Assembly (NCBI GenBank): GCA_046759185.1
Contig: JBHIBO010000003.1
Coordinates: 18,865-82,864, forward strand
DNA length: 64,000 nt
Direction of reading: 5' to 3'
From: Thermoplasmata archaeon
GTDB taxonomy: Archaea; Thermoplasmatota; Thermoplasmata; RBG-16-68-12; JAJISG01
The first letter of the stretch is position 1. Each line of letters begins with the position of its first letter. A program made the position numbers and the translations under genes. Under the pieces are notes generated by a model. The model ran no database searches and was not told where the DNA came from. It was given only the letters and a program-made list of their open reading frames with translations. Below are positions 3,917 to 50,719 of this stretch, piece by piece.

Positions 3917-5637
3917 CGGAGGACCCCTGGCGGGACCTTACCGAGGCGATTGCCGGACTCGTCCGGGCCGGTGAGGAGGCCCTCGACTTCCCCAGCTTGA
4001 ACGTGCCCCTCGAGCTGCCCGCCCCCCGGTTTGGCGACGTCGCCCTCCCCACGCACGGCTACGCCAAACCTGCCCGGGCGCCTCCCGCAGAGATTGCTGC
4101 CCGCCTGTCCGAGGCCATGCCGCAGACGGGTGTCTACGTGAGCGGGCACGAGCCCGTGGCGGGCTACGTGAACTTCCACATCGACCTGGGCGCCTTCGCC
4201 GAACACACCCTGGGGGCCGTCCTGGAACGCGCCGAGGACTACGGGCGGGCGTCCCCCAACGGGGTGCGCACCCTGGTGGAGCACACCAGCGTGAATCCCA
4301 CAGGACCTATCCACGTGGGCCGCGCGCGCAACTCCATCATTGGGGACACCCTCGCCCGTCTCCTCGACCGCACGGGGTACACGGTCACCCGGGAGTTCCT
4401 CGTGAACGACTCCGGCCGCCAGGTCCTGACCCTCGTCTGGGGCCTCGACCACCTGAGCGCGGAGGATGTGGAACCACCGGCGCGGGAGGGGGAGGACTAC
4501 AGGCTGGTGCGCTACTACCAGAAGGCAACCGAAGCCGCCAGGGATCCGGGGGTCACCGAGGAGGTCGACGGCATGGTACGTCGTCTCGAAGCGGGCGATG
4601 AGGAGCTCCGAGGCCGCGTCCGCGCCGTCACGAATCAGATGATGGACGGCATTCTCCGGAGCCTGGGACGGCTGGACATCGCCTTCGACAGTTTCTTCTG
4701 GGACGACCAGGTCCTCGCCGACGGGAGTGCCCAGGGGGTCGTCGAGCGCCTCCGCGGCGGAGGCCACTTGGAAGAGGACGAGGGCGCCCTGTATATCGAC
4801 ATGGCCCCCCATGGATTCGCGGGACGGAATCCTCGCTGGTTCCTTACCCGGCGGGACGGGACCACCCTCTACACCACCCGGGATCTCGCCTACCACCTCG
4901 ACAAGTTTGGCCGGAGTGACGAGGCCCTCAATGTCCTAGGGGAGGACCACCGACTGGAGTTTCAACAGCTCTCGGTGGCTCTTCGCCTGCTTGGGGTCGA
5001 GCAGGAGGCGGAGGCCGTGTTCCTGGCCCACGTCTCCCTCCCCGAGGGACGGCTCTCCACTCGTGGGGGGCGGGTCGTCAACATCGACGACCTGGTGGAC
5101 GAGGCGGTCGAACGGGCCTTGGTCGCCGTGGAGTCCCGCCGGGAGGACCTGTCCAAGGAGGAGATGATGGGGATCGCGAAGGCAGTCGGGATCGGGGCCG
5201 TCCGATACAACATCGTCAAGGTCCAGCCGGAGAAGCGGATCGTGTTCCGATGGGACCAGGCGCTGAGCCTCGAGGGGCAGACCGCCCCCTTCCTCCAGTA
5301 CGCCTACGCGCGGGCGGCGGGGATCCTTGCGAAGTCGGAGGGGCTGGACGGTTGGGATGCCAGTCTCCTGACGCATCCCCAAGAACGGGCCTTGGTGAAG
5401 CTCCTAGGCCGATTTCCGGGCGTCCTGCGGGACGCCGCCGAGCATCGGCGCCCCAATCGGGTGGCCCTCTTCGGGCATGAACTAGCGACGACCTTCAACC
5501 AGTTCTACCGGGACTCCCCCGTGCTCCAGGCTGAGGAGGACCTGCGCGCCGCCCGTCTCGCCCTCGTCATTTCCTTCAAGACTGTCCTGGGGAATCTCCT
5601 AACATGTCTCGGGATTCAGCCCCTGGAGGAGATGTAG
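3913..5637 (+). CDS. argS: arginine--tRNA ligase
   Basis: ORF 3730..5637 trimmed to ATG at 3913 (MTEDPWRDL...), which overlaps the aRF1 stop as ATGA. It has class I signatures including HTSVNPTGPIHVGRARN (HIGH region), and the C-terminal anticodon-binding domain is conserved. Confidence 0.9.
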   Translation: MTEDPWRDLTEAIAGLVRAGEEALDFPSLNVPLELPAPRFGDVALPTHGYAKPARAPPAEIAARLSEAMPQTGVYVSGHEPVAGYVNFHIDLGAFAEHTLGAVLERAEDYGRASPNGVRTLVEHTSVNPTGPIHVGRARNSIIGDTLARLLDRTGYTVTREFLVNDSGRQVLTLVWGLDHLSAEDVEPPAREGEDYRLVRYYQKATEAARDPGVTEEVDGMVRRLEAGDEELRGRVRAVTNQMMDGILRSLGRLDIAFDSFFWDDQVLADGSAQGVVERLRGGGHLEEDEGALYIDMAPHGFAGRNPRWFLTRRDGTTLYTTRDLAYHLDKFGRSDEALNVLGEDHRLEFQQLSVALRLLGVEQEAEAVFLAHVSLPEGRLSTRGGRVVNIDDLVDEAVERALVAVESRREDLSKEEMMGIAKAVGIGAVRYNIVKVQPEKRIVFRWDQALSLEGQTAPFLQYAYARAAGILAKSEGLDGWDASLLTHPQERALVKLLGRFPGVLRDAAEHRRPNRVALFGHELATTFNQFYRDSPVLQAEEDLRAARLALVISFKTVLGNLLTCLGIQPLEEM

Positions 5638-21032: not shown

Positions 21033-21071
21033 AGATATTTGCTACACGCCAGCCCTGGGGGAAGGAGCTTG

Positions 21072-21947
21072 ATGCCTGCAAGGTTTGACTACTATGCGCC
21101 TACCTCGCTCAGCGAGGCTGTCGAGCTTTTGGAACGCCACGACGACAAGGCGAGGGTCCTGGCTGGGGGCCAGAGCCTCGTCCCCCTGATGAAGCTCCGG
21201 GTCGGCGAGCCGCTCGGCGTTCTCGTTGATCTCAATCGAATCGAAGACCTGGGATACGTGAAGGAGGAGGATGGTGCCCTCCGCATCGGGGCCCTGGCAC
21301 GCCATCGTGACTTGGAAAACTCGGACATCATCCAAGGTCGTTACCCCCTACTGGCCGACGCCGCGGGGACCATCGGCGACCTCCAGATCCGCAACCTAGG
21401 AACCCCCGCCGGGTCCTTGGCCCATGCCGACCCCGCCTCCGACTGGGGAGCGGCCTTCCTGGCGTTTGAGAGCGAGGTCACCGCCACCTCTGCAAAGGGG
21501 GTTCGGACCATCTCGCTGGATGACTTCTTCGTGGACACCTTCGCCACCGCCTTGGAGCCCGGCGAGGTTCTCACGGAGATTCGGGTTCCCTCTGTAGGGA
21601 ACGGTTCCGGCGGAAGCTATCAGAAGCTCAAGAGGAAGGCGGGGGACTTCGCCACCGTCGGAGTGGCCGCACAGCTGCAGCTCGATGGGGGTGGGACTGT
21701 GAGCCAGGCGAGACTTGCCCTGACGGCGGTGGGAGCGACGCCCTTCCGCGCCCAGGATGGGGAGGACCGCCTGCGGGACGGTCCGGCGGACGAGGCGGCC
21801 GTGGCCGAGGCGGCCGGCCTGGCGGCCCAGGCGGCCGAGCCCACAGACGATCTCCGAGGATCCTCGGAATACAAGCGGGCCATGGTGGAGGTCTTCACCC
21901 GGCGTGCGTTGGAGACCGCGCTGGAAAGGGCGAGAGGAGGATCCTGA
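21072..21947 (+). CDS. Mo-hydroxylase FAD-binding medium subunit (CoxM-like), form-II cluster
   Basis: MPARFDYYAPTSLSEAVELLE...AGGQSLVPLMKLR. This is the FAD-binding PCMH domain. GGAGG RBS lies before the ATG. Confidence 0.85.
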   Translation: MPARFDYYAPTSLSEAVELLERHDDKARVLAGGQSLVPLMKLRVGEPLGVLVDLNRIEDLGYVKEEDGALRIGALARHRDLENSDIIQGRYPLLADAAGTIGDLQIRNLGTPAGSLAHADPASDWGAAFLAFESEVTATSAKGVRTISLDDFFVDTFATALEPGEVLTEIRVPSVGNGSGGSYQKLKRKAGDFATVGVAAQLQLDGGGTVSQARLALTAVGATPFRAQDGEDRLRDGPADEAAVAEAAGLAAQAAEPTDDLRGSSEYKRAMVEVFTRRALETALERARGGS

Positions 21948-21990
21948 TTATGAGCGAAGAGTTTCTTGGCTGGACTGGGAGGGAGAGGTG

Positions 21991-22476
21991 ATGGAGGGAG
22001 AACCGAAGCTGCATCACGTCGCGCTGACCGTAAATGACGAGCGCCGCGAGGGAGACGTCGAGGCCCGTGTCCTACTGGTGGACTTCCTGCGCGACCAGCT
22101 GCGTCTCACGGGCGCCCACGTCGGCTGCGACACAGGCCACTGCGGGGCGTGCACCGTGGTCGTAAACGGTCGCGCGATCAAGGCCTGTTCCATGTTCGCC
22201 GTCCAGGCCGACGGCGCTGAGGTGCTCACCATCGAAGGCCTGGCCTCCGACGGGGAGCTGCATCCGCTTCAGAGGTCCTTCTCGGAGCACCACGGGTTGC
22301 AGTGTGGCTTCTGCACGCCCGGCCTCATCATGACGGCCTACGAACTCTTGGAGCGGAATCCCGATCCCACGGAAGCACAGGTTCGCGAGGGGATATCGGG
22401 CAACATGTGTCGATGCACCGGCTATGTGAACGTCGTGAAGGCCGTCCTTGCGACGGCGGGAGCGAAGGAGGGATAA
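21991..22476 (+). CDS. Mo-hydroxylase [2Fe-2S] small subunit (CoxS-like), form-II cluster
   Basis: Both 2Fe-2S motifs are present: [11 protein letters not shown], and QCGFCTPG...CRCTGY. The ORF was trimmed to ATG at 21991. Confidence 0.85.
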
Positions 22477-22480
22477 GGCG

Positions 22481-24832
22481 ATGGCAGCAGCTGAGAAGTA
22501 CGTGGGAGCGCGTGTCCAGAGAAAAGAGGATGCCCGGTTTGTCACCGGAACGGGCAGCTACGTAGCAGACCTGGCCCTGCCGGGCATGCTCCACGCGGTC
22601 TTCCTGCGAAGCCCCTACGCCCACGCCAAGATCAAGAAGGTCGACGTCGCCGCGGCCCAAAAGCTCCCGGGGGTCGTGGAGGTCTTCACAGGGGAGGACC
22701 TGAAGGACGACATCGGTTCCACCCCCACCGCCTGGGTGATTCCCGATTCGGATTTGAAGACACCACCCTACCAAGCCCTGGCCACGGAACGGGTCCGCTA
22801 CCAGGGCGAAGCCGTGGCCGTCGTGGTGGCAGAGGATCCCGCCATCGGTGCCGATGCCATCGAGCTCATTGACGTAGACTACGAACCCCTTCCGGTGGTC
22901 GTGAACCAGGAGGAGGCCCTCAAGGAGGGAGCGCCCCAGCTCCACGAAGAGGCGCCCGGCAACCAGGCCTTCAAATGGGTCCTGCCGGGCGGGGACGTGG
23001 ACGCGGCCTTCGAGGAGGCCGACGTCGTGGTGGAGCAGCGCCTCGTCAACCAGAGGCTCCAGCCCTCGGCCATGGAGCCGCGAGCCGCCCTGGCCCAGTG
23101 GGACGAGGTGGACGAGAAGCTCACGCTGTGGGTGACCTCGCAGAACCCCCACATTCATCGTCTCATCCTGGCCGCGTTTGTCCTCGGGATTCCCGAGAAC
23201 AAACTTCGAGTCATCGCCCCGGACGTGGGAGGCGGCTTTGGGAGCAAGATCCCGATCTACCCATGGGAAGCCGTCGTATCTCATCTCGCCAGAAAGTTGG
23301 GCCGCCCCGTCAAGTGGGTGGAGAGCCGGACGGAGAATTACCAAGCGACGACTCACGGTCGGGACATGGTCCAGGACGTCGAGATGGCCGCAAAGAAGGA
23401 CGGTACAATCCTCGGCATCAAGATCAAGGCCTTCGCGAATATGGGGGCCTATCTGTCCACGGCCGCGCCCGGAATTCCGACGATTCTCTTCGGGTTCATT
23501 ATCAGCGGTGCCTACACCATGAAGGCCACCCATGCCGAGGTAATCGGTGTGTTCACCAACACGACCCCTACGGATGCCTACCGGGGGGCGGGCCGTCCCG
23601 AGGCCATGTTCGCGGTGGAGCGGATGGTAGACATCCTCGCCCGGAAGCTGGGCATGGACCCCGTGGAGATCCGTCGGAAGAACTTCGTTTCTCCGGACGC
23701 CTTCCCGTACCAGATTCCCACAGGCCTGACTTACGACAGCGGGAATTACCCCGGGACCCTGGCAAAGGCCCTGAAGATCTTGGACTACGACGCATTCCGA
23801 GAGGAGCAGGCGAAGGCGCGCGAGGAGGGCCGTCTCCTTGGCATCGGTTTCTCCACCTACCTGGAGTTGTGCGGCTTGGCCCCCTCTCCGGTTTCCACCG
23901 GCACCGGTTTCCAGGGAGGCCTCTGGGGCAGCTCCGTCTGTCGGATGCTTCCCACGGGCAAGGTCTCCGTATTCACAGGGGCGCACCCCCACGGGCAGGG
24001 AGAGGAGACAACCTTCGCCCAGATCGCCGCGGACGAGCTCGGCGTGCCCGTGGAGGACGTGGAAATCGTCCACGGGGACACGGACATGACCCCCATGGGC
24101 ATGGGGACCTACGGCAGCCGCACGAACCCGGTTGAGGGCGGGTCGGTCGCCCTCTCGGCCCGCAAGGTGGTGGCCAAGGCGAAGAGGATCGCGGCCCACC
24201 TCTTGGAGGCGCGCACCGAAGACATGGCCTTCGAGGGGGGGAAGTTCTTCGTGAAAGGGGCCCCTGACAAGGCCAAGACCATTCAGGAAGTCGCTTTCGC
24301 GGCCTACATGGCTCAGAGCATGCCCGAAGGGGTGGAGCCCATTCTGGAGGCCACCACCTTCTACGATCCCACGAACTTCGTCTATCCCTTTGGTGCCCAC
24401 ATCTGCACGGTGGAGGTGGACTCCGAGACCGGCGAGGTGGAGATCCTACGATACGTGGCCGTGGACGACTGCGGGACGATCATCAACCCCATGATCGTGG
24501 AGGGCCAGGTCCACGGGGGCGTTCTCCAAGGCGTGGCCCAGGCCCTCTGGGAGGAAGCCCGCTACGACGAGGACGGGAACCTGCTGACTGGCAGTTTCAC
24601 GGAATACCTGGTGCCCACGGCGCTGGAGAGTCCGAAGATCGAGACGGACCATACGGTCACGCCGTCCCCGCACAACCCCCTGGGGGCGAAGGGCATCGGC
24701 GAGACGGGAACCATCGCCTCGTCCGAGGCCGTCATCAACGCCATCGTGGACGCCCTGGAGCCTTATGGAGTGACCCACGTAGACATGCCCGCCACCCCCG
24801 AGAAGCTGTGGCGCCTCATCCAAGAAACGTAG
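22481..24832 (+). CDS. Mo-hydroxylase large subunit, CoxL-like form II
   Basis: Trimmed to MAAAEKYVG at 22481. The active-site loop is NTTPTDAYRGAGRPEAMF (form II). Confidence 0.9.
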   Translation: MAAAEKYVGARVQRKEDARFVTGTGSYVADLALPGMLHAVFLRSPYAHAKIKKVDVAAAQKLPGVVEVFTGEDLKDDIGSTPTAWVIPDSDLKTPPYQALATERVRYQGEAVAVVVAEDPAIGADAIELIDVDYEPLPVVVNQEEALKEGAPQLHEEAPGNQAFKWVLPGGDVDAAFEEADVVVEQRLVNQRLQPSAMEPRAALAQWDEVDEKLTLWVTSQNPHIHRLILAAFVLGIPENKLRVIAPDVGGGFGSKIPIYPWEAVVSHLARKLGRPVKWVESRTENYQATTHGRDMVQDVEMAAKKDGTILGIKIKAFANMGAYLSTAAPGIPTILFGFIISGAYTMKATHAEVIGVFTNTTPTDAYRGAGRPEAMFAVERMVDILARKLGMDPVEIRRKNFVSPDAFPYQIPTGLTYDSGNYPGTLAKALKILDYDAFREEQAKAREEGRLLGIGFSTYLELCGLAPSPVSTGTGFQGGLWGSSVCRMLPTGKVSVFTGAHPHGQGEETTFAQIAADELGVPVEDVEIVHGDTDMTPMGMGTYGSRTNPVEGGSVALSARKVVAKAKRIAAHLLEARTEDMAFEGGKFFVKGAPDKAKTIQEVAFAAYMAQSMPEGVEPILEATTFYDPTNFVYPFGAHICTVEVDSETGEVEILRYVAVDDCGTIINPMIVEGQVHGGVLQGVAQALWEEARYDEDGNLLTGSFTEYLVPTALESPKIETDHTVTPSPHNPLGAKGIGETGTIASSEAVINAIVDALEPYGVTHVDMPATPEKLWRLIQET

Positions 24833-24836
24833 TTTC

Positions 24837-26099
24837 TCACCCCGTGGAGGCGCCGCTCACGTCTCCCTCGGGACCCGTCACGCCGAGCGAAGCCACGGGC
24901 GCTCTCGGCGGTCGTGGGTACAGGGCATGGACGGGTCGTCCGAAGTAGCGGGCGTATTGATCCCGGCGTGCCAAGGCCGTCGGCGGTACCAACAGGTCCA
25001 CGTGGGGAAGGGCCTGCCTCATCCCCGCCACCTCGGCACGGAAGTCAGGACGCTCGGCGTAGGGGTTCATCCAGAGGAGAAGGAAGGCGCGGCGCCGGAG
25101 GGACGCCATCTGGTCCTCCAAGAGGTGCAGGCTGCCCACGTCCCACCCGTCGCTCAGGATGAGCACGACGGTCCGCCCGTCGACCGTGGACCCGTGGTGA
25201 CGCTGAAACTCCGCGAGGCACCGCCCGATCTGCGTGCCTCCCCCCGCATGCGCCAGCTTCTCAGACACATAGCGGACGGCCTCACGATAAGGCCGGCCGC
25301 GCAGGACGGCCGTCAGGGGCCAGAGCTCCGTGCTGAAGGCGTAGAGCCGGGCGGAGGGAATCGCTCGAAGGAGGGCGTACACGATGCCAAGGAGGAGGGG
25401 CCCGTGTCCCTCCATGCTCCCGCTCACGTCCCACAGAACGACCAAACGGGTCCGCTGTAGTTTCCGGCGATGCCGCCGGACGGCGAGCCACTCGCCCCCG
25501 GATCGGAGGCTAGCCCGTGCCGTCCGCGGGAAGTCCACGGCCCCTCGGCGGCTCGCCACGCGCCTTCGCCCCTCAACCGTCGCCGCCCACCGCCGGAATC
25601 GCCGGGCCAATCGTTTCATCGTGTCGAGCTCGCGTCGACTTGGCATCTCGAGGTCTCTGGGGCCTGGAGGCGCTTCGGGACTGTAGACGAGAAGGCGCAA
25701 GCGATCGACACTCCAGGGAACTCGATCCCGACCCGCCCGTACACGCCCGCGCTGGGTACTCCAGGCCTCCTCGACGCTGCCGGGCTGTTGGGGTACGGGA
25801 GGTCGGGCGGGTGGCGCCCTGCTTTCTCCCGGCAAGACGCCCGGCATGCCGGACCGGGACCAATACTCTTCGAAGGCGTTCTCAAAGACAGGGAAGTCTT
25901 CCGCCCGCTTGACCAAGGTCGTCCGACAGGCGAGGTAGAACTCTCGTCTCCGCAACCGGTTCACGTGGTCGAGAGCCCTCGCGAGGTCCAGCTCTTCGCC
26001 GAGCCCCACGGGCATGCCTCGTGCCCGCAGCAGGCCAAAGAACCCGGCCAGGCGGCGGGAGAGGCCGCCACCGTCCGCTGGCACCTGCCCGGTCCTCAT
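24837..26099 (-). CDS. coxE: VWA-domain CODH maturation protein CoxE
   Basis: 420 aa. The VWA MIDAS motif is LVVLWDVSGSM, and it pairs with the upstream MoxR ATPase. Confidence 0.85.
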   Translation of the reverse strand: MRTGQVPADGGGLSRRLAGFFGLLRARGMPVGLGEELDLARALDHVNRLRRREFYLACRTTLVKRAEDFPVFENAFEEYWSRSGMPGVLPGESRAPPARPPVPQQPGSVEEAWSTQRGRVRAGRDRVPWSVDRLRLLVYSPEAPPGPRDLEMPSRRELDTMKRLARRFRRWAATVEGRRRVASRRGAVDFPRTARASLRSGGEWLAVRRHRRKLQRTRLVVLWDVSGSMEGHGPLLLGIVYALLRAIPSARLYAFSTELWPLTAVLRGRPYREAVRYVSEKLAHAGGGTQIGRCLAEFQRHHGSTVDGRTVVLILSDGWDVGSLHLLEDQMASLRRRAFLLLWMNPYAERPDFRAEVAGMRQALPHVDLLVPPTALARRDQYARYFGRPVHALYPRPPRAPVASLGVTGPEGDVSGASTG

Positions 26100-27028
26100 G
26101 ACCTCAACAACAGGTCGACCTTCTCCTCGAGCAGTCGCAGGTCCTCTGCCTCTTTCGCCACAAAGCCGAGGGTCTCGAGCAGGGTCTTCTTGTCCATGTG
26201 TTCAACCCCGAGGGCGAGCAGCGCGGCCACCCAGTCCAGGGTCTCCGAGATGCCAGGTCTCTTCAGGACCTCCTCTTCCGTTCGGACGCGTTGGACAAAG
26301 GACAGGACCTCCTCGGCGAGACCCTCGTCGAGTTCCGGGACCCGACGACGGAGGATCGTGAGCTCCTTCTCCCACGAGGGGTAGTCGATGTACAGGTACA
26401 GACAGCGTCGCTTGAGGGCATCGCTCAGCTCCCGCGTCCGGTTCGACGTGATGATGACGAAGGGGACCCGCTCCGCCCGAAAGGTCCCGATTTCCGGGAT
26501 GGTCACCTGGAACTCCGAGAGGAACTCCAGGAGAAGCCCCTCGAACTCCTCGTCCGCTCGGTCGATTTCGTCGATGAGGAGGGTGGGGGGTTTGGGGCCG
26601 TCGTGGTTTAGGGCCTTAAGGAGGGGGCGCCGGAGAAGGAACTTCTCGCTGAAAATCTCCGCCTCCAGCTCCGAGGGATCCTTCTGTTTCTCCTGCAGGC
26701 GGATCGCCAGCAGTTGCTTGGGGTAGTTCCATTCGTATAGGGTGGATTCGGCATCCAAGCCCTCGTAGCACTGGAGGCGGATGAGGTCCGTGTCGAGGGC
26801 CTCGGAGAGGGCGCGGGCGATGTCCGTCTTTCCACACCCCGGTTCGCCTTCTACGAGGAGCGGCTTGCCGAGCTTCATCGAGAGGTAGACCGCCATGGCG
26901 ATCGACCGGTCGGCAACGTACTCGCTTTTCTCAAAGGCCTCAATGACCTCCTCGGGCTTGCTAAAGGGAGCTTCGTTCGCCACTTGCTGGTCCGCCATGG
27001 GTGTTCTCAGGGGTTCAGATGCTGCCAT
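26096..27028 (-). CDS. coxD: MoxR-like AAA+ ATPase CoxD
   Basis: Walker A VEGEPGCGKTD and Walker B LLIDEIDRA. It overlaps coxE by 4 nt. Confidence 0.85.
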   Translation of the reverse strand: MAASEPLRTPMADQQVANEAPFSKPEEVIEAFEKSEYVADRSIAMAVYLSMKLGKPLLVEGEPGCGKTDIARALSEALDTDLIRLQCYEGLDAESTLYEWNYPKQLLAIRLQEKQKDPSELEAEIFSEKFLLRRPLLKALNHDGPKPPTLLIDEIDRADEEFEGLLLEFLSEFQVTIPEIGTFRAERVPFVIITSNRTRELSDALKRRCLYLYIDYPSWEKELTILRRRVPELDEGLAEEVLSFVQRVRTEEEVLKRPGISETLDWVAALLALGVEHMDKKTLLETLGFVAKEAEDLRLLEEKVDLLLRS

Positions 27029-29998: not shown

Positions 29999-30433
29999 TC
30001 ACTCGAAGAGGCCCCGTACACACGCGAAGAACTCCTTCACCTTCTTCTCCGCCGTGGACTCGATCATCCGAGAACCGACGCTGGCGAGCTTCCCCACGAG
30101 GCGGGCTTCTGCGTTCCATCGCATTTCGGTCCCCCGGGCCGTCTTGATGAGGACGACGACCGAGTCCACGTCTACCGCACTGCCTCGTCCCGTCCCGTGG
30201 GCCTTCAGGCGGGCCCGGGTCGGCCTGTCCTCCTCCACGAGCTGGACCGTGAAATCGAACTTGCCTTTGATGAAGGAGACTCCGGCCTTCACCACAGCCC
30301 GGAAGTGCGTGGGACTGTGCACCTCCAGGAGCTGCAGATCGGGCATACATGGCGCCAGTTTCCGGGGGTCAATGAAGGTGTCCCAAACCTCCTCTACGGG
30401 GGCTTCCACGGCGAAGGTTCCCTGGAAATCCAT
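29999..30433 (-). CDS. CoxG-like SRPBCC protein (CODH subunit G family)
   Basis: 144 aa. It is a paralog of the ORF at 35726, sharing FxGTF...KxHGxGRGSAVDVD...TARGTEMRW. Confidence 0.8.
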   Translation of the reverse strand: MDFQGTFAVEAPVEEVWDTFIDPRKLAPCMPDLQLLEVHSPTHFRAVVKAGVSFIKGKFDFTVQLVEEDRPTRARLKAHGTGRGSAVDVDSVVVLIKTARGTEMRWNAEARLVGKLASVGSRMIESTAEKKVKEFFACVRGLFE

Positions 30434-30586
30434 GATGACCGTCCTCCCACCGAAGGGGACCGGGGTTGGTCCCGAAACGCTCCGACCCCCGCCCGCAATC
30501 TTAGTCAGAGGGGGGCCCGATTAAAAACCTGCGGCTGGGACCGCTCCCGGGTTTGTACTGTCTCATGCCCCTTTTTCCACCTGGGA

Positions 30587-30620
30587 GTTGCGCCTATCCC
30601 GCGTGAGGTTGCGCCTATCC
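30587..30620 (+). promoter_or_regulatory. tandem direct repeat GTTGCGCCTATCC (2 copies, 21-bp period), candidate regulator-binding site
   Basis: Exact 13-mer at 30587-30599 and at 30608-30620. It lies about 40 bp from a TATA-like ggaTAGTATAAA (30655-30666; on the minus strand this reads as a consensus archaeal TTTATA box) in the 500-bp gap between xdhC and the coxG paralog. Confidence 0.3.
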
Positions 30621-30941
30621 GGGGGCAGGTGGAGGTTATCAGTTATTATTCTGAGGATAGTATAAATGTACCCCTTCCATCTTATCCTCATGTCTCGGAA
30701 AGTGACGGAATATGAGCCCGGGAAGATGACCGCTTCGAAGTCCCGGAGAGGCCGAGTCGCGGCCGTCCTGGGTGTCCTGAGCGCCATGGTGCGCGGAAGC
30801 CGCGCCCGGAGGATTCCCAGGGTGGCGGACGGGTTCACCGTTCCCCAGGGCGCCCGGATGGGTCCCCCGCTGGGCCTCGCGGTGCAGGCCGGCGATCTCA
30901 GCCTCGTCCGGTAGTCGGAATCCACCCGACGCGAAGTGGCC

Positions 30942-31802
30942 CTACCCCGGGGCCGCCTTGGGCGCCTCTGTCTTGCTCCCCTTCCCCGGAAGGCGCCTCC
31001 CGTATTTTGTGGCCACAACCTCTGCCATGATGCTCAAGGCGAGTTCCCCGGGCGTGGTCGCTCCCATGTCGATCCCGATGGGGGTGCGCACCCGGCGGAG
31101 GAACGCCTGGTCCACGCCCAGGTCGGCCAACGCCTTCATGTCGTGGGCGATGCGGTCGCGGCTGGCGAGAAGGCCCACGTACCGGACGGGCGCCTCGGCC
31201 AGGGCGGCCAGCACGGTGACGTCCCGGGCCCCCTTCGTCAGCACAACGACGGAATCCCGCTTCGTCCATTCAAACGTCGTCATATCGAACTCCATGTCCT
31301 CGATGAGGACATCGGGCTGGCTCTCCAGAACGGGCTTGTGGTCGATGACCACGACTTCCATGTCCAGGAGCTTTCCCAGCTCTACGAGGTGGTCTTCCAA
31401 TGGGTCCCGACCCCCCTCAGCCACAAGGATGAGCCGGTCGGGTGGCAGGTACGGTTCGACGTAAATCTCCATCACCCCTCCGCAATTCGTCTCCACGTGA
31501 ATCTCGTCGCGCGTCTGGTTCGTGACGGTGCCGCGAACGGCGGTTTCTACGTCCTCGAGGTAGACCTTGACGAGGCGAGGCTCCCCCGTCTCCATCGTCT
31601 CTAGCGCGACCTCGACGATGGGCCCATCGGGACAGGCTCCGCCCAGGGTTCCGAAGGCCACCTCCTGATTCTCGGAGATGATCATTTTGAATCCCGGCTT
31701 GCCGAGGGAAGAGCCCTCGACGCCCACGACGGTGGCGACGGAGAACGGCTTCCGGGCCGCCACCAGACGATTCATGTTTCGGGCGAAGCCGTACTCGTCC
31801 AT
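30942..31802 (-). CDS. XdhC/CoxF-family molybdenum-cofactor insertion chaperone
   Basis: It has the XdhC_CoxI N-terminal domain (KPFSVATVVGVEGSSLGKPGFKMII) and the XdhC Rossmann-like C-terminal domain (RLILVAEGG..., VRYVGLLASRDR). It was trimmed from 31844 to the ATG at 31802. Confidence 0.8.
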   Translation of the reverse strand: MDEYGFARNMNRLVAARKPFSVATVVGVEGSSLGKPGFKMIISENQEVAFGTLGGACPDGPIVEVALETMETGEPRLVKVYLEDVETAVRGTVTNQTRDEIHVETNCGGVMEIYVEPYLPPDRLILVAEGGRDPLEDHLVELGKLLDMEVVVIDHKPVLESQPDVLIEDMEFDMTTFEWTKRDSVVVLTKGARDVTVLAALAEAPVRYVGLLASRDRIAHDMKALADLGVDQAFLRRVRTPIGIDMGATTPGELALSIMAEVVATKYGRRLPGKGSKTEAPKAAPG

Positions 31803-31886
31803 GAGCCCCGATTCTAGCGACGGCCTCGTCTTAATCCTTTCCACCGGCCGAAAGGAGGAGGGAATTCCGAACGGTTGCTGGAAAGT

Positions 31887-31894
31887 CTTTTATC
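31887..31894 (+). promoter_or_regulatory. putative TATA box (CTTTTATC) of the form-I coxMSL operon
   Basis: AT-rich motif 41-48 nt upstream of the GTG start at 31935. The geometry matches the form-II cluster promoter. Confidence 0.4.
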
Positions 31895-31934
31895 CGAACC
31901 CCCTTTTAGGCGAGCCTCACGGGGGACAAGTATC

Positions 31935-32807
31935 GTGATTCCGCCTCAATTCGAGTATTTTGCGCCCTCTTCGGTCGATGAGGCCGTCGAGCTCTTGGAA
32001 CGATATGATGGCGAGGCCAAGGTCCTCGCCGGAGGAATGAGCCTGATCCCGATCCTCAAGCTCCGACTGGCGGAGCCTGCGGCCCTGGTGGACATCGGTC
32101 GCATCGAGGGCCTCTCGTACATACGGGAGGAGGACGGGTGGCTTCGCATCGGCGCGGGTACCGTGCTGAGCGACCTGCACGATTCGGACTTGGTGCGGGA
32201 GAAGTACCCCATCTTCCATGACGCCGCCTCGGTCATCGCCGACCCGCTGGTGGACAACATGGGCACGGTGGGAGGCAACCTCGCCCACGCCGATCCCGCC
32301 AACGACCTCCCGGCCTGCATGCTCGTCATGGGGGCCCAGGTCGTCGTCCAAGGACCGAAGGGTTCCCGGACGATTCCCGTCGGGGAGTTCTTCGTCGATA
32401 CGTTCGAGACCGCCCTTGAGGACGACGAGATCCTCACCGAGGTCCAGGTTCCCACGTCCCAGGCTCGCCAAGGGAACGCCTACATGAAGATCGAGAAGCG
32501 GGCCGGGGACTTCTCCATCGCCGCCGTGGCGGCCAACGTCGTCCTGAATGGGAACGGAACAGTGGGGAGCGCGGGGATTGGCCTCACCAATGCCGGGCCG
32601 ACCCCTTTCTTGGCGGAGGAGGCCTCGAACCACTTGGCTGGGGGGAGTCCGGATGAGGCGACTCTCGCCCGGGCGGCCGAGCTAGCGGAGGAGGCATCCA
32701 ACCCGGTTTCCGACCTCCGAGGACCCGCGGAGTACAAGCGGGCCATGGTCGGCGTCCTCACGCGCAGGACCGTAGGGAAAGCTCTCGAGCGGGCGAGAGG
32801 TGGATAG
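31935..32807 (+). CDS. coxM: CO dehydrogenase FAD-binding medium subunit
   Basis: A GTG start gives [22 protein letters not shown], the canonical CoxM N-terminus. The FAD-binding domain is conserved with the cluster at 21072. Confidence 0.85.
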
Positions 32808-36202: not shown

Positions 36203-37861
36203 CTATGCGACGAACGACGCCGGTTCCTTGACGAAGCGAGTCTGGCAGCCCTCGGAGCAGAAGTAGTACGTCGATCCCTCGTGCTCGGCGTGCAAGGAGG
36301 AGGCTGGGACGACGGTCATGCCGCAGACGACGTCCATGGCCGTCTCACTCACGGCCGGAGTCGCTTGCAGGCCGGCCGAGCTCGGGACCGACCGATGACG
36401 CACCTCGGTGATCTCGGCCATGATGCTGAGGGCAATTTCCTCCTGTGTCTCGGCAGCCAGGTCGAGGCCGGCTGGGTTGCGGAGTCGTCCGAGGGCGTCC
36501 TCGCCGAGCCCCTCGTCTCGGAGGCTCTCGATCAGGGCATTCGCCCGCCGACGACTCGCCACTAGGCCCACGTAAGCCGCAGGGGAACCGAGCAGCTGAC
36601 GCACAGCCGTCTCGTCGTATCGGCCCATGGAAGCCACCACGGCGAAGGTGGAACGTGTTGCGGCCGCCGCCAACGCCTCCACGTCCCCGATGACCACATC
36701 CGCGTCTGGCTGCTTCTCCTGTGTGACTCCCAAGGCCGCGACGACCACACGGAAGCCCAAGAGGTGGCCGAGAACGGCGAGCGCCTGACCCAAGGGCGAC
36801 TCACCGACGATCAGGAGCTGGGGCGTGGGGTTGTTGGGCTCCAGGAAGATCTCCATTTCCCCACCGCTCTCGCACACCATAGGGTGTTGGGTCACTCCCT
36901 CTCGAGGAGGGGTTCTAGCCGGGTCGGGGGAGAAGCTGACGAGGCGAGGGATGCCGTCTTCCAGGGCCGTGAGGGCCTCGGCGACGACGATGGACTGGGA
37001 GCAGGCGCCGCCGATCCAGCCCGTCATCTCGCCGCCTTGCCGAATGACGGCCTTGAACCCCGGCTTCCCCGAGGTGGGTCGAACGGCACGCACGACCGTC
37101 GCGAGGACGAAGGGCTCTCCGCGTCGCCTGAGTTCCTGGGCCAGGTCCACGGGGTCGTCGGCGATCGAGCGTCCGAAGTGGGATAAACCCTGGGTGACCG
37201 CGGGCAGGTGGCCCTCACCCTCCTGATGGAGCTCCAAGGCCAAGGTCTCCAGCGCCTCCCCCTCCTCCAAATCGTGTGCGACCCGTCCAAGCTGCTCTTC
37301 CGTATCGATGTCCAGCAGGACGCCGGGATCGGGTACGGGGACCTCGACGATCTCGCCCTCGTAGTTACCGAAGATGCTACGACAGCCCCGGTCTCCCGTG
37401 ATCCCGCGTACGTCGCCGAAAACGGAGCGATCGAGGAGGACGGGATTGCCACGAACGCCTTGGAAGGTGGGGATGAGGACGGGCGCACCTGTGGCCTTCC
37501 ACTCCTTGCCCAATGTGTCGAGAGTTTCCGCCTGGAGGAAGGGCTGGTCTCCGAGCACGATCAAAACGCTCTCGGCCCCCGACGACAGGGATCGGATCCC
37601 CGCCCGGATGGAGGTGCTCATCCCCTCTGGGTAACGCTCGTTGACGACCACATTCGCGCCGTCGAGGGAGACCTCCTCGCGGATCCGGTCAGCCTCACTG
37701 CCAAGAACCACGACGACTTCCTCAGCCGAGGAGCCTTGTACGGACTCGAGCACCCGCTCGAGGAGCTTCTGCCCTCCCACCTCCAACAGCGGCTTAGGGC
37801 GCCCCATGCGCGAAGAGGTTCCAGCGGCCAGGACGATCGCGGAAATCACGTGACGATCCAC
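36203..37861 (-). CDS. tri-domain fusion: MocA-like molybdenum cofactor cytidylyltransferase + XdhC/CoxI chaperone + C-terminal YHS/TRASH metal-binding domain
   Basis: N-terminus: ISAIVLAAGTSSRMGRPKPLL (MobA/MocA NTP-transferase). Middle: PFVLATVVRAVRPTSGKPGFKAV plus QLLIVGESPLGQALAVLGHLLGFRVVV (XdhC N- and C-terminal domains). C-terminus: DVVCGMTVVPASSLHAEHEGSTYYFCSEGCQTRF (YHS). It is one uninterrupted 552-aa ORF, with a GTG start at 37861 or 37849. Confidence 0.8.
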   Translation of the reverse strand: MDRHVISAIVLAAGTSSRMGRPKPLLEVGGQKLLERVLESVQGSSAEEVVVVLGSEADRIREEVSLDGANVVVNERYPEGMSTSIRAGIRSLSSGAESVLIVLGDQPFLQAETLDTLGKEWKATGAPVLIPTFQGVRGNPVLLDRSVFGDVRGITGDRGCRSIFGNYEGEIVEVPVPDPGVLLDIDTEEQLGRVAHDLEEGEALETLALELHQEGEGHLPAVTQGLSHFGRSIADDPVDLAQELRRRGEPFVLATVVRAVRPTSGKPGFKAVIRQGGEMTGWIGGACSQSIVVAEALTALEDGIPRLVSFSPDPARTPPREGVTQHPMVCESGGEMEIFLEPNNPTPQLLIVGESPLGQALAVLGHLLGFRVVVAALGVTQEKQPDADVVIGDVEALAAAATRSTFAVVASMGRYDETAVRQLLGSPAAYVGLVASRRRANALIESLRDEGLGEDALGRLRNPAGLDLAAETQEEIALSIMAEITEVRHRSVPSSAGLQATPAVSETAMDVVCGMTVVPASSLHAEHEGSTYYFCSEGCQTRFVKEPASFVA

Positions 37862-50098: not shown

Positions 50099-50536
50099 TC
50101 ACTCGTTCTCAGGGACCAGACCGAGCTGGGCCATGAAGCCGAGCATGTCGAAGTACGAGCGCTGCTCGGTAATCTTCCCGTTCTCGACCTTGACGACGTC
50201 CGCGGACCACATCCTGATGGTCTTGTTCGTCGGGGGGACCTCCGATCCGTCGGGGTTGACGAGGGTGCCCGTGTGGGTTCCCTCGAGTTCCTCCTCGACC
50301 ACGACCCAGTCGCCCTGGCCAAAGCTGTTGACGATGGTCCCCTTGAGGTCCCCGAACGCGTCGAAGAAGGGTCTCATCCATCCCTTGACGGCGTCGACTC
50401 CCTTCAGGGGCTCCTCGAGGCCAGGCGCGTGGGCGACGACGCTCTCTGCGTAAGCTTCGAAAGCGCGATCCCAATCGCGGGCATTCAGGGCCTCATCCCG
50501 CTCTTCCAATAGACTAATCTTCTCTTCGATTCCCAT
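50099..50536 (-). CDS. SnoaL-like / ester cyclase (NTF2-like fold) protein
   Basis: 145 aa. It is a paralog of the gene at 53097, sharing WDRxFxxYAESVV...GQGDWVVxE...GTHxG...PTNKxI. Confidence 0.8.
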   Translation of the reverse strand: MGIEEKISLLEERDEALNARDWDRAFEAYAESVVAHAPGLEEPLKGVDAVKGWMRPFFDAFGDLKGTIVNSFGQGDWVVVEEELEGTHTGTLVNPDGSEVPPTNKTIRMWSADVVKVENGKITEQRSYFDMLGFMAQLGLVPENE

Positions 50537-50719
50537 GGTACTCTCTTCCTTGAGTCTGATTCCTCTCGGGCTGGAAATCTCTCTTTAGCATTGGGCCATT
50601 TGAGTGGTCGGCCGCAGCCGGAGAACTCCCTCCCCGAGGCTAAGCCACCTACTTTTACGCCATTATAAAGGGCTTACGGGTTCCGCCGCATCTGGCTCTG
50701 ACCGCAGACCGGCATCCTA

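Follow-up and report, generated by a model that had tools for sequence, protein, structure and literature searches.

A three-unit array of asymmetric repeats, GTKG-N4-TATC, stands in a fixed register upstream of the predicted promoter of a small gene between xdhC and coxG in an uncultured Thermoplasmata archaeon, and it is kept in 14 loci, counting that of the window (the entire 64,000-nt stretch analyzed here, G+C ∼65%, whose sequence is present in runs SRR29324601 and SRR29324603). We tentatively read the array as a multi-site, helically phased protein-binding control region of the small-gene promoter. The preliminary description had taken two exact 13-bp repeats in this region for a dimeric operator upstream of coxG, with a CO- or Mo-responsive regulator as a candidate. 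A selected, phased cis-element is indeed indicated, and a protein-bound operator remains the best single reading of it, but the units number three rather than two, and their association is with a different gene. Four of the relatives (L003, L006, L007, and L011) were found with XdhC in species genomes, four (L072-L075) through small-protein homologues, four (L076-L079) through XdhC homologues, and the more distant L081 by an exhaustive profile search. Apart from L081, the relatives form one narrow clade in which XdhC is at least 84% identical.

The repeat GTTGCGCCTATCC occurs twice exactly on the plus strand, at 30587-30599 and 30608-30620, 21 bp start to start, as originally reported. These two copies are units 1 and 2 of the GTKG-N4-TATC array found in 13 related Thermoplasmata loci, which is made up as follows.

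30587..30599, plus strand: repeat unit 1, GTTGCGCCTATCC, family consensus GTTGA-NNN-TATCC.
30608..30620, plus strand: repeat unit 2, GTTGCGCCTATCC, family consensus GTTGA-NNN-TATCC.
30629..30641, plus strand: degenerate unit 3, GTGGAGGTTATCA, exactly 21 bp past unit 2 and invariant in all relatives.

The two 21-nt units share 81% identity, and apart from the GTTGCGCCTATCC pair no stretch of 13 nt or more repeats exactly in direct orientation within 60 bp anywhere in the window. Dinucleotide shuffling nevertheless yields one or more such repeats in 11% of cases, so that the repeat on its own merits is only marginally unusual and the case for the element rests on conservation, not on the repeat alone. 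The degenerate unit GGATASNNNCAAC is present twice in the window against 0.12 expected. No further copy of GTTGCGCCTATCC was found in the 64-kb window with up to two mismatches allowed, and the additional repeat pairs for which the preliminary description had proposed looking are likewise absent from the window. A PWM for which units 1 and 2 of the relatives were the sole training set ranked unit 3 81st of 127,976 window positions (top 0.06%); this unit stands at +21 in 13 of 13 relatives, and the 21/21-bp register of the three units is invariant in all 14 genomes when the window is counted. The units do not recur anywhere else in the window or in ∼98 kb of related loci; the next-best PWM match reaches 11.9 bits versus 18.1 bits. 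YTATCC hexamers are clustered here as well, with four within 94 bp versus 22 in the entire window.

The unit ends, GTTGA and TATCC, are fixed, while the 3–4-nt core and the 8-nt spacers vary freely across loci; in the distant L081 both inter-unit spacers have been replaced with the units intact. The 13/13 identity of units 1 and 2 is confined to the window. In all relatives the 4-nt cores of the two units differ (TCCC versus CGCC in L076, where 1318-1351 corresponds to window 30587-30620), whereas the window has CGCC in both, and its inter-unit spacer is heavily rewritten relative to the relatives. The identical window units, set against the unlike cores of L076 and the other relatives, point to a recent homogenization event. 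This suggests short-patch conversion between the window repeats, a process that might equally leave a pattern resembling RNA covariation in the inverted repeat considered below.

The array is embedded in a non-coding block of ∼120 bp (30572-30692) that is 76–80% identical to the relatives with essentially no indels, although synonymous sites of the adjoining small ORF differ from them at 50–55% and both the flanks of the block and the DNA to the left of its T5 tract are unalignable among the relatives. Between unit 1 and the TATA box no indels are present in 12 of the 13 other loci, the exception being a 49-nt deletion in L076. The comparison argues clearly for purifying selection on the block. 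Its remaining features, other than the inverted repeat, are the following.

30572..30576, plus strand: T5 tract, which is A5 on the opposite strand and bounds the block on its left; kept in 13 of 14 loci (TTTCT in L072).
30642..30660, no strand assigned: AT-rich spacer GTTATTATTCTGAGGATAG, nearly invariant and ending in an inverted CTATCC.
30661..30666, no strand assigned: TATA box, TATAAA on the plus strand and TTTATA on the minus strand, inside the quasi-palindrome GTATAAATGTAC.
30682..30687, plus strand: TTATCC copy at -8..-3 of the small-ORF start codon.

The T5 tract may terminate or insulate plus-strand read-through. Only three TTTATA hexamers occur in the 64 kb, among them the one reported at 30666..30661 of the minus strand; this copy is conserved next to the array, and of the 14 loci L076 alone has lost it, by deletion. 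It had been assigned to coxG. Read on the plus strand, TATAAA ends 23 nt ahead of a conserved ATG at 30690 (24 nt in relatives), and in the one other case where TTTATA precedes a long ORF in the window, 21 nt separate it from the start codon. From this spacing and established archaeal promoter architecture we infer that the small-ORF mRNA is probably leaderless. The array units occupy -103 to -49 of the small ORF, upstream of BRE/TATA and on one helix face. On the minus strand, for which an activator geometry had been proposed, the repeats instead fall on the downstream side of TTTATA, roughly between +17 and +50 relative to the predicted minus-strand TSS; they are upstream for the plus strand only. 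Two extra CTATC cores bracket the core promoter, one inverted at the BRE position (the CTATCC at 30655-30660, which abuts the TATA box) and one direct at -8..-3. In the window, GAGGATA (30653-30659) and TATCCTC (30683-30689) also pair up as a perfect inverted repeat of 7 bp, which encloses the TATA box and ends at the start codon, and of which the relatives keep just GATAG/CTATC.

The quasi-palindromic TATA region makes it probable that the box is shared and that the core promoter is bidirectional, firing on the minus strand as well; the predicted plus-strand start (∼30689) and minus-strand start (∼30637-30639) lie ∼50 bp apart. Shared-TATA bidirectional promoters of Pyrococcus furiosus have the arrangement BRE-TATA-BRE with TSSs ∼49 bp apart, and their divergent RNAs are thought to be mostly non-functional (PMC6640164). 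The region described here resembles them in its quasi-palindromic TATA segment (GTATAAATATAC in relatives) and in the distance between the predicted starts, but differs in that the downstream sequence on the minus side is strongly conserved and in that transcription is predicted here from sequence. In L076, the closest relative (XdhC 95% identical), the 49-nt deletion (at 1281-1300, corresponding to 30652-30700 of the window) has taken out both the TATA box and the first ATG but spared the three-unit array. The deletion brings an AT-rich TTATTATT to ∼27 nt before a conserved internal Met13 codon, and a promoter swap may have taken place there.

The genes on either side of the block, with the promoter element of coxG, are arranged as follows.

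29999..30433, minus strand: coxG (SRPBCC/CoxG family).
30521..30527, minus strand: TATA-like box of coxG itself, TTTTTAA here and AGGTTTATATCGG (TTTATAT) in relatives, 87 nt before the coxG ATG.
30690..30914, plus strand: small ORF of 74 aa, NCBI hypothetical ACE5JE_01690, open in 12 relatives.
30942..31802, minus strand: xdhC accessory factor, with the start set at the ATG that gives 286 aa, as in homologues.

The gap between the coxG start (30433) and the xdhC stop (30942) measures 508 bp, in keeping with the long gap of 500 bp noted earlier, although 225 bp of it is the conserved plus-strand ORF. The xdhC start supported by homologues is the ATG ending at 31802, not the GTG at 31844. Upstream come a MOT1 molybdate transporter, MoaB, and MoaA, and downstream coxMSL; farther out, at 21039-27028 and 36203-37861, the island includes a second CoxM/CoxL-type set, coxE (VWA), coxD (AAA/MoxR), and an unusual MobA-XdhC-YHS fusion of 552 aa. 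No regulator or transcription-factor gene adjoins the element in the window neighborhood, and its motif is present at no other promoter of the Mo/CODH island. With neither a second copy of the motif in the island nor a neighboring regulator gene, nothing points to the CO- or Mo-responsive regulon that had been suggested.

Assignment of the TATA box at 30661-30666 to coxG is contradicted by the conserved TATA of coxG itself (30527..30521) and the GGAGG ribosome-binding site that precedes the gene; with its TATA ∼87 nt upstream and a GGAGG, coxG is predicted to have an mRNA with a leader. The T5 of this box on the minus strand could terminate read-through from xdhC. The element can be present without coxG and absent with it. 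Both the element and the small ORF are kept in L007 and L011, which have lost coxG and in which the coxG TATA has decayed, whereas L004, L008-L010, and L080 contain xdhC-coxG and lack the element. In the outgroup L009 coxG directly follows xdhC, the two genes being almost adjacent, and no trace of the element is seen in L008 or L080. A covariance model of the element returned one match per element-bearing locus and none elsewhere in 414 kb, with no element in L004, L008-L010, L080, or any Nitrososphaerales locus. A metagenome scan with TGATAACCTCCAC-N8-GGATA gave 26 matches, all in unrelated coding sequence, and 0 homologues. From this pattern of presence and absence we conclude that the element belongs to the small-ORF module, not to coxG. 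In L004 (XdhC 87% identical), a single deletion at ∼5050-5150 took the 5' end of the small ORF, its promoter, and the whole array and kept the coxG TATA, implying that the module is dispensable.

The small ORF begins at 30690, downstream of the repeats, and the possibility raised earlier that the repeats are part of a small coding sequence therefore does not apply. Where the frame is open in relatives (n = 12) it spans 74–76 codons; in L003 it is truncated by an internal deletion, and in L076 it is without the first ATG. Indels are in-frame only, variable columns number 40, 31, and 54 at the three codon positions, and pairwise dN/dS is 0.3–0.75, all of which indicates a real but fast-evolving gene. 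An exhaustive profile search of 1.84 billion protein clusters recovered seven representatives of the small-protein family, and the 74-aa protein has no match in Pfam, NCBIfam, or PDB. AlphaFold predicts, with low confidence (pLDDT 57), a single basic amphipathic helix (residues 19-38). This basic orphan protein, with a conserved C-terminal GDLxLxR, is located between xdhC and coxG in one Thermoplasmata clade. A minus-strand ORF of 151 aa at 30563..31018 was set aside as Arg/Pro-rich junk without a family.

In the operator model, the three GTKG-N4-TATC units (30587, 30608, and 30629) would be the upstream control region of the plus-strand promoter that serves the small gene at 30690-30914, and a putative DNA-binding regulator would bind them cooperatively, head to tail. 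Regulator on the upstream sites would help to recruit TBP/TFB, in the geometry of an activator (UAS), and occupancy of the TATA- and TSS-proximal CTATC copies would lead to repression or autoregulation. The comparison establishes the repeats, their phasing and conservation, the link to the small gene, and the independence from coxG; the TSSs, the binding of a protein, and the sign of regulation belong to the model. Conserved, repeated, sequence-specific sites are found in all 14 loci, at a fixed position relative to the BRE/TATA of the predicted promoter; a second operator, by which a regulon would be recognized, is found neither in the 64-kb window nor in the related loci. The GvpE UAS between the divergent haloarchaeal gas-vesicle promoters PA and PD is a 20-nt element composed of two conserved 8-nt portions next to the BRE, for which the activator is known and the distance to the BRE is critical (PMC2241852). 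Tandem conserved portions just upstream of BRE/TATA, in a short region between opposite promoters (here predicted), are common to both systems, but the present array has three 13-bp units at 21-bp spacing with extra cores at the TATA and TSS, a different sequence in a different phylum, and a binding protein that is only putative. Archaeal activators of the Lrp/Ptr2 type bind pairs or triplets of regularly spaced upstream sites that are (pseudo)palindromic with A/T-rich centers. The presence of several helically phased sites upstream of the TATA box is similar and implies cooperative binding, whereas the present unit has no such symmetry and its core is GC-rich and variable.

That asymmetry counts against the operator model, since most known archaeal operators are palindromic and an asymmetric unit is unusual. 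So does the lack of a neighboring regulator gene and of a second operator in the sequence covered, which leaves the model without the support of a regulon. The intact array of L076 also counts against it, having persisted despite loss of the TATA box and first ATG. The same is true of an inverted repeat, IR1, that brackets units 1 and 2 and whose complementarity has been kept through independent double substitutions.

30576..30583, no strand assigned: left arm of IR1, TCCACCTG, the would-be 3' arm of a helix P1 in a minus-strand RNA.
30626..30633, no strand assigned: right arm of IR1, CAGGTGGA, overlapping the start of unit 3.

IR1 is 8 bp long, with five invariant pairs and two or three inner pairs in which both partners have changed: C-G<->T-A distinguishes L007 from its sister locus L011 and, again, L077/L078/L074 from L006, and G-C->T-A is seen in L081. 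Compensatory changes of this kind are not predicted by a DNA-binding model unless they arise by gene conversion or templated mutation between repeats, and the 13/13 identity of the window's units suggests that such a process may offer the operator model a way out.

The double changes make a structured RNA on the minus strand a serious rival, the main one, and it is possible, if doubtful, that this RNA is the conserved feature. The transcript could be a short divergent RNA from the shared TATA, starting at ∼30637-30639, 4–6 nt before the helix (TTTATA is 28 nt before the helix on the minus strand), or it could be part of an xdhC 3' UTR or xdhC-coxG intercistronic RNA. P1 (30633..30626 with 30583..30576) would close a loop with a pair of GGAUA...CAAC modules, one of which would lie in a hairpin of 5 bp whose loop reads GGAUA. 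Such modules would serve as sites for an RNA-binding protein or as pairing segments for targets. Archaea are documented to transcribe divergently from a shared TATA (PMC6640164), and the lack of oligo-T after xdhC makes a read-through RNA over the element plausible. Two-loop archaeal sRNAs are also documented, an example being the trans-acting sRNA154 of Methanosarcina mazei (PMC5867862). The element, if transcribed, would likewise be a small intergenic RNA with conserved sequence in two loops or modules; it differs from sRNA154 in having no terminator or identified targets, in the weak support for its inner helices, and in being known from its DNA alone.

The RNAalifold consensus for the minus strand contains two short hairpins besides P1, with 91% of cells paired and four or five pairs that change on both sides; P1 pairs show compensatory change at least three times independently, and a 5-bp helix that joins the inter-unit spacer with one unit core displays four pair types. 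For the whole structure, 0–4 of 500 shuffles match the paired fraction, covariation score, or covarying-pair count; when P1 and hairpin B are taken alone, 19 of 500 shuffles reach the covarying-pair count and 41 of 500 the pair types. Slid controls are at most 56% paired, the mirror structure on the plus strand is 77% paired, and the alignment-shuffle z is -3.75 for the minus strand versus -1.49 for the plus strand. Against these values, the hairpin interior tested alone is not significant (z = -1.4), single-sequence folds are mutually inconsistent (z = -1.6 for the window's own), and the structure was both derived from and tested on one small alignment of close relatives. L076 and L081 have a C.A in the minus-strand P1 (G.U on the plus strand), and the strand asymmetry is just 3:2. 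An RNA starting at the shared TATA would exclude unit 3 and two CTATC copies, and two of the four YTATCC copies are outside any RNA that begins at the predicted minus-strand TSS. An RNA reading gives no reason for the exact 21-nt phasing, the aligned loci show no conserved terminator, oligo-T, or defined 3' end after the helix, and the predicted minus-strand promoter is deleted in L076. The alignment supports the outer helix P1 well, one inner hairpin is suggestive, and the strand signal is mixed.

Several specific RNA candidates were tried and rejected. Scans of the whole window with Rfam gave no match at the gathering score, including Moco riboswitch, C/D-box, and H/ACA sRNA models, and over 30430-30950 three matches far below gathering scores (E 0.45–8) were returned, none of them over the repeats; no tRNAs were found in the window. 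By eye, C/D-box, H/ACA, and K-turn identities were discarded: UGAUAA is not a box C, no box D or ACA is present, and no canonical helix lies below the GA motif. A Moco riboswitch had no model match. For an anti-Shine-Dalgarno mimic (AACCUCCAC) or a minus-strand uORF after GGUGG, the downstream AUGs and peptides are not conserved. Pairing of the two unit cores (GCGC/GCGC in the window) fails in relatives, L003 and L081 lack inner hairpin A, and a target search with the loop sequence TATCCGG as target-pairing segment gave no enrichment. Scans for sigma-70 promoters and intrinsic terminators are irrelevant for an archaeon.

A small structured minus-strand RNA new to description, whether the divergent partner of the small gene or an antisense xdhC 3'-UTR element, is somewhat unlikely. 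If it were real, a covarying 8–10-bp helix would display repeated GGAUA...CAAC modules, whose task would be to titrate some RNA-binding protein or to influence the mRNA of the small gene, and a small-protein/sRNA module would reside inside a CO-dehydrogenase maturation cluster of uncultured Thermoplasmata. The operator and minus-strand RNA readings are not mutually exclusive.

A third explanation, that the repeats are a functionless duplication produced by chance or slippage in a promoter-proximal spacer and look conserved because the genomes are close, appears very improbable. The frequency of exact 13-mer pairs in shuffled windows, the lineage-specific nature of the 13/13 identity, and the origin of all relatives in one narrow clade are what such a history would produce; however, motifs and register are invariant even though synonymous sites differ at ∼50% and the spacers have turned over fully, the degenerate motif exceeds expectation (2 versus 0.12), and the third unit is in phase.

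Plasmid iterons are direct repeats with a 21–22-bp period beside an AT-rich stretch, and the three 21-bp direct units next to a ∼30-bp AT-rich segment have that appearance. The small-ORF and element module is moreover an insertion relative to the outgroups L009, L008, and L080 that was deleted again in L004. That the element is part of a replicon or mobile element, decayed or still active, with iteron-like 21-bp repeats inserted together with the small ORF between xdhC and coxG, is nevertheless very improbable as well, since no Rep, Orc, or integrase gene, terminal repeats, or target duplication is present at the locus (the neighbors are coxG, xdhC, MoaB, and the 74-aa orphan, with no Rep or Orc1/Cdc6 initiator gene), the module is just ∼350 bp, the AT-rich part is spaced exactly as the TATA promoter of the small ORF, and the element is chromosomal and single-copy, at the same position and in fixed synteny in 14 genomes.

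The cis-regulatory elements of uncultured Thermoplasmata are essentially uncharted, and the one described here is sharply defined. It matches no known family and is a clade-restricted, modest find, tied to an orphan 74-aa protein between the Mo-enzyme maturation genes xdhC and coxG. It offers a test bed for a new archaeal regulator with an asymmetric head-to-tail site, for bidirectional transcription off one TATA box, and for finding out if the short inverted repeats close to promoters of archaea work at the DNA or at the RNA level. The local annotation logic is also corrected, in that this TATA box does not drive coxG.

Two other intergenic segments of the window deserve mention. In the divergent region between xdhC and coxM (31803-31935), TTTCCACC (GGTGGAAAGG on the minus strand) resembles the element's arm plus A-tract, and GTTG...TTTTATCC is located ∼40 nt before the coxM GTG. 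The third TTTATA of the window (50669..50664, minus strand) is followed by a GC-rich leader of ∼100 nt (GGTGGCTTAGCCTCGGGGAGGG...) and then by a SnoaL-like ORF (50099-50536). The leader region (50537-50669, minus strand) has no Rfam match in the window-wide scan and may represent a structured 5' UTR or a small RNA.
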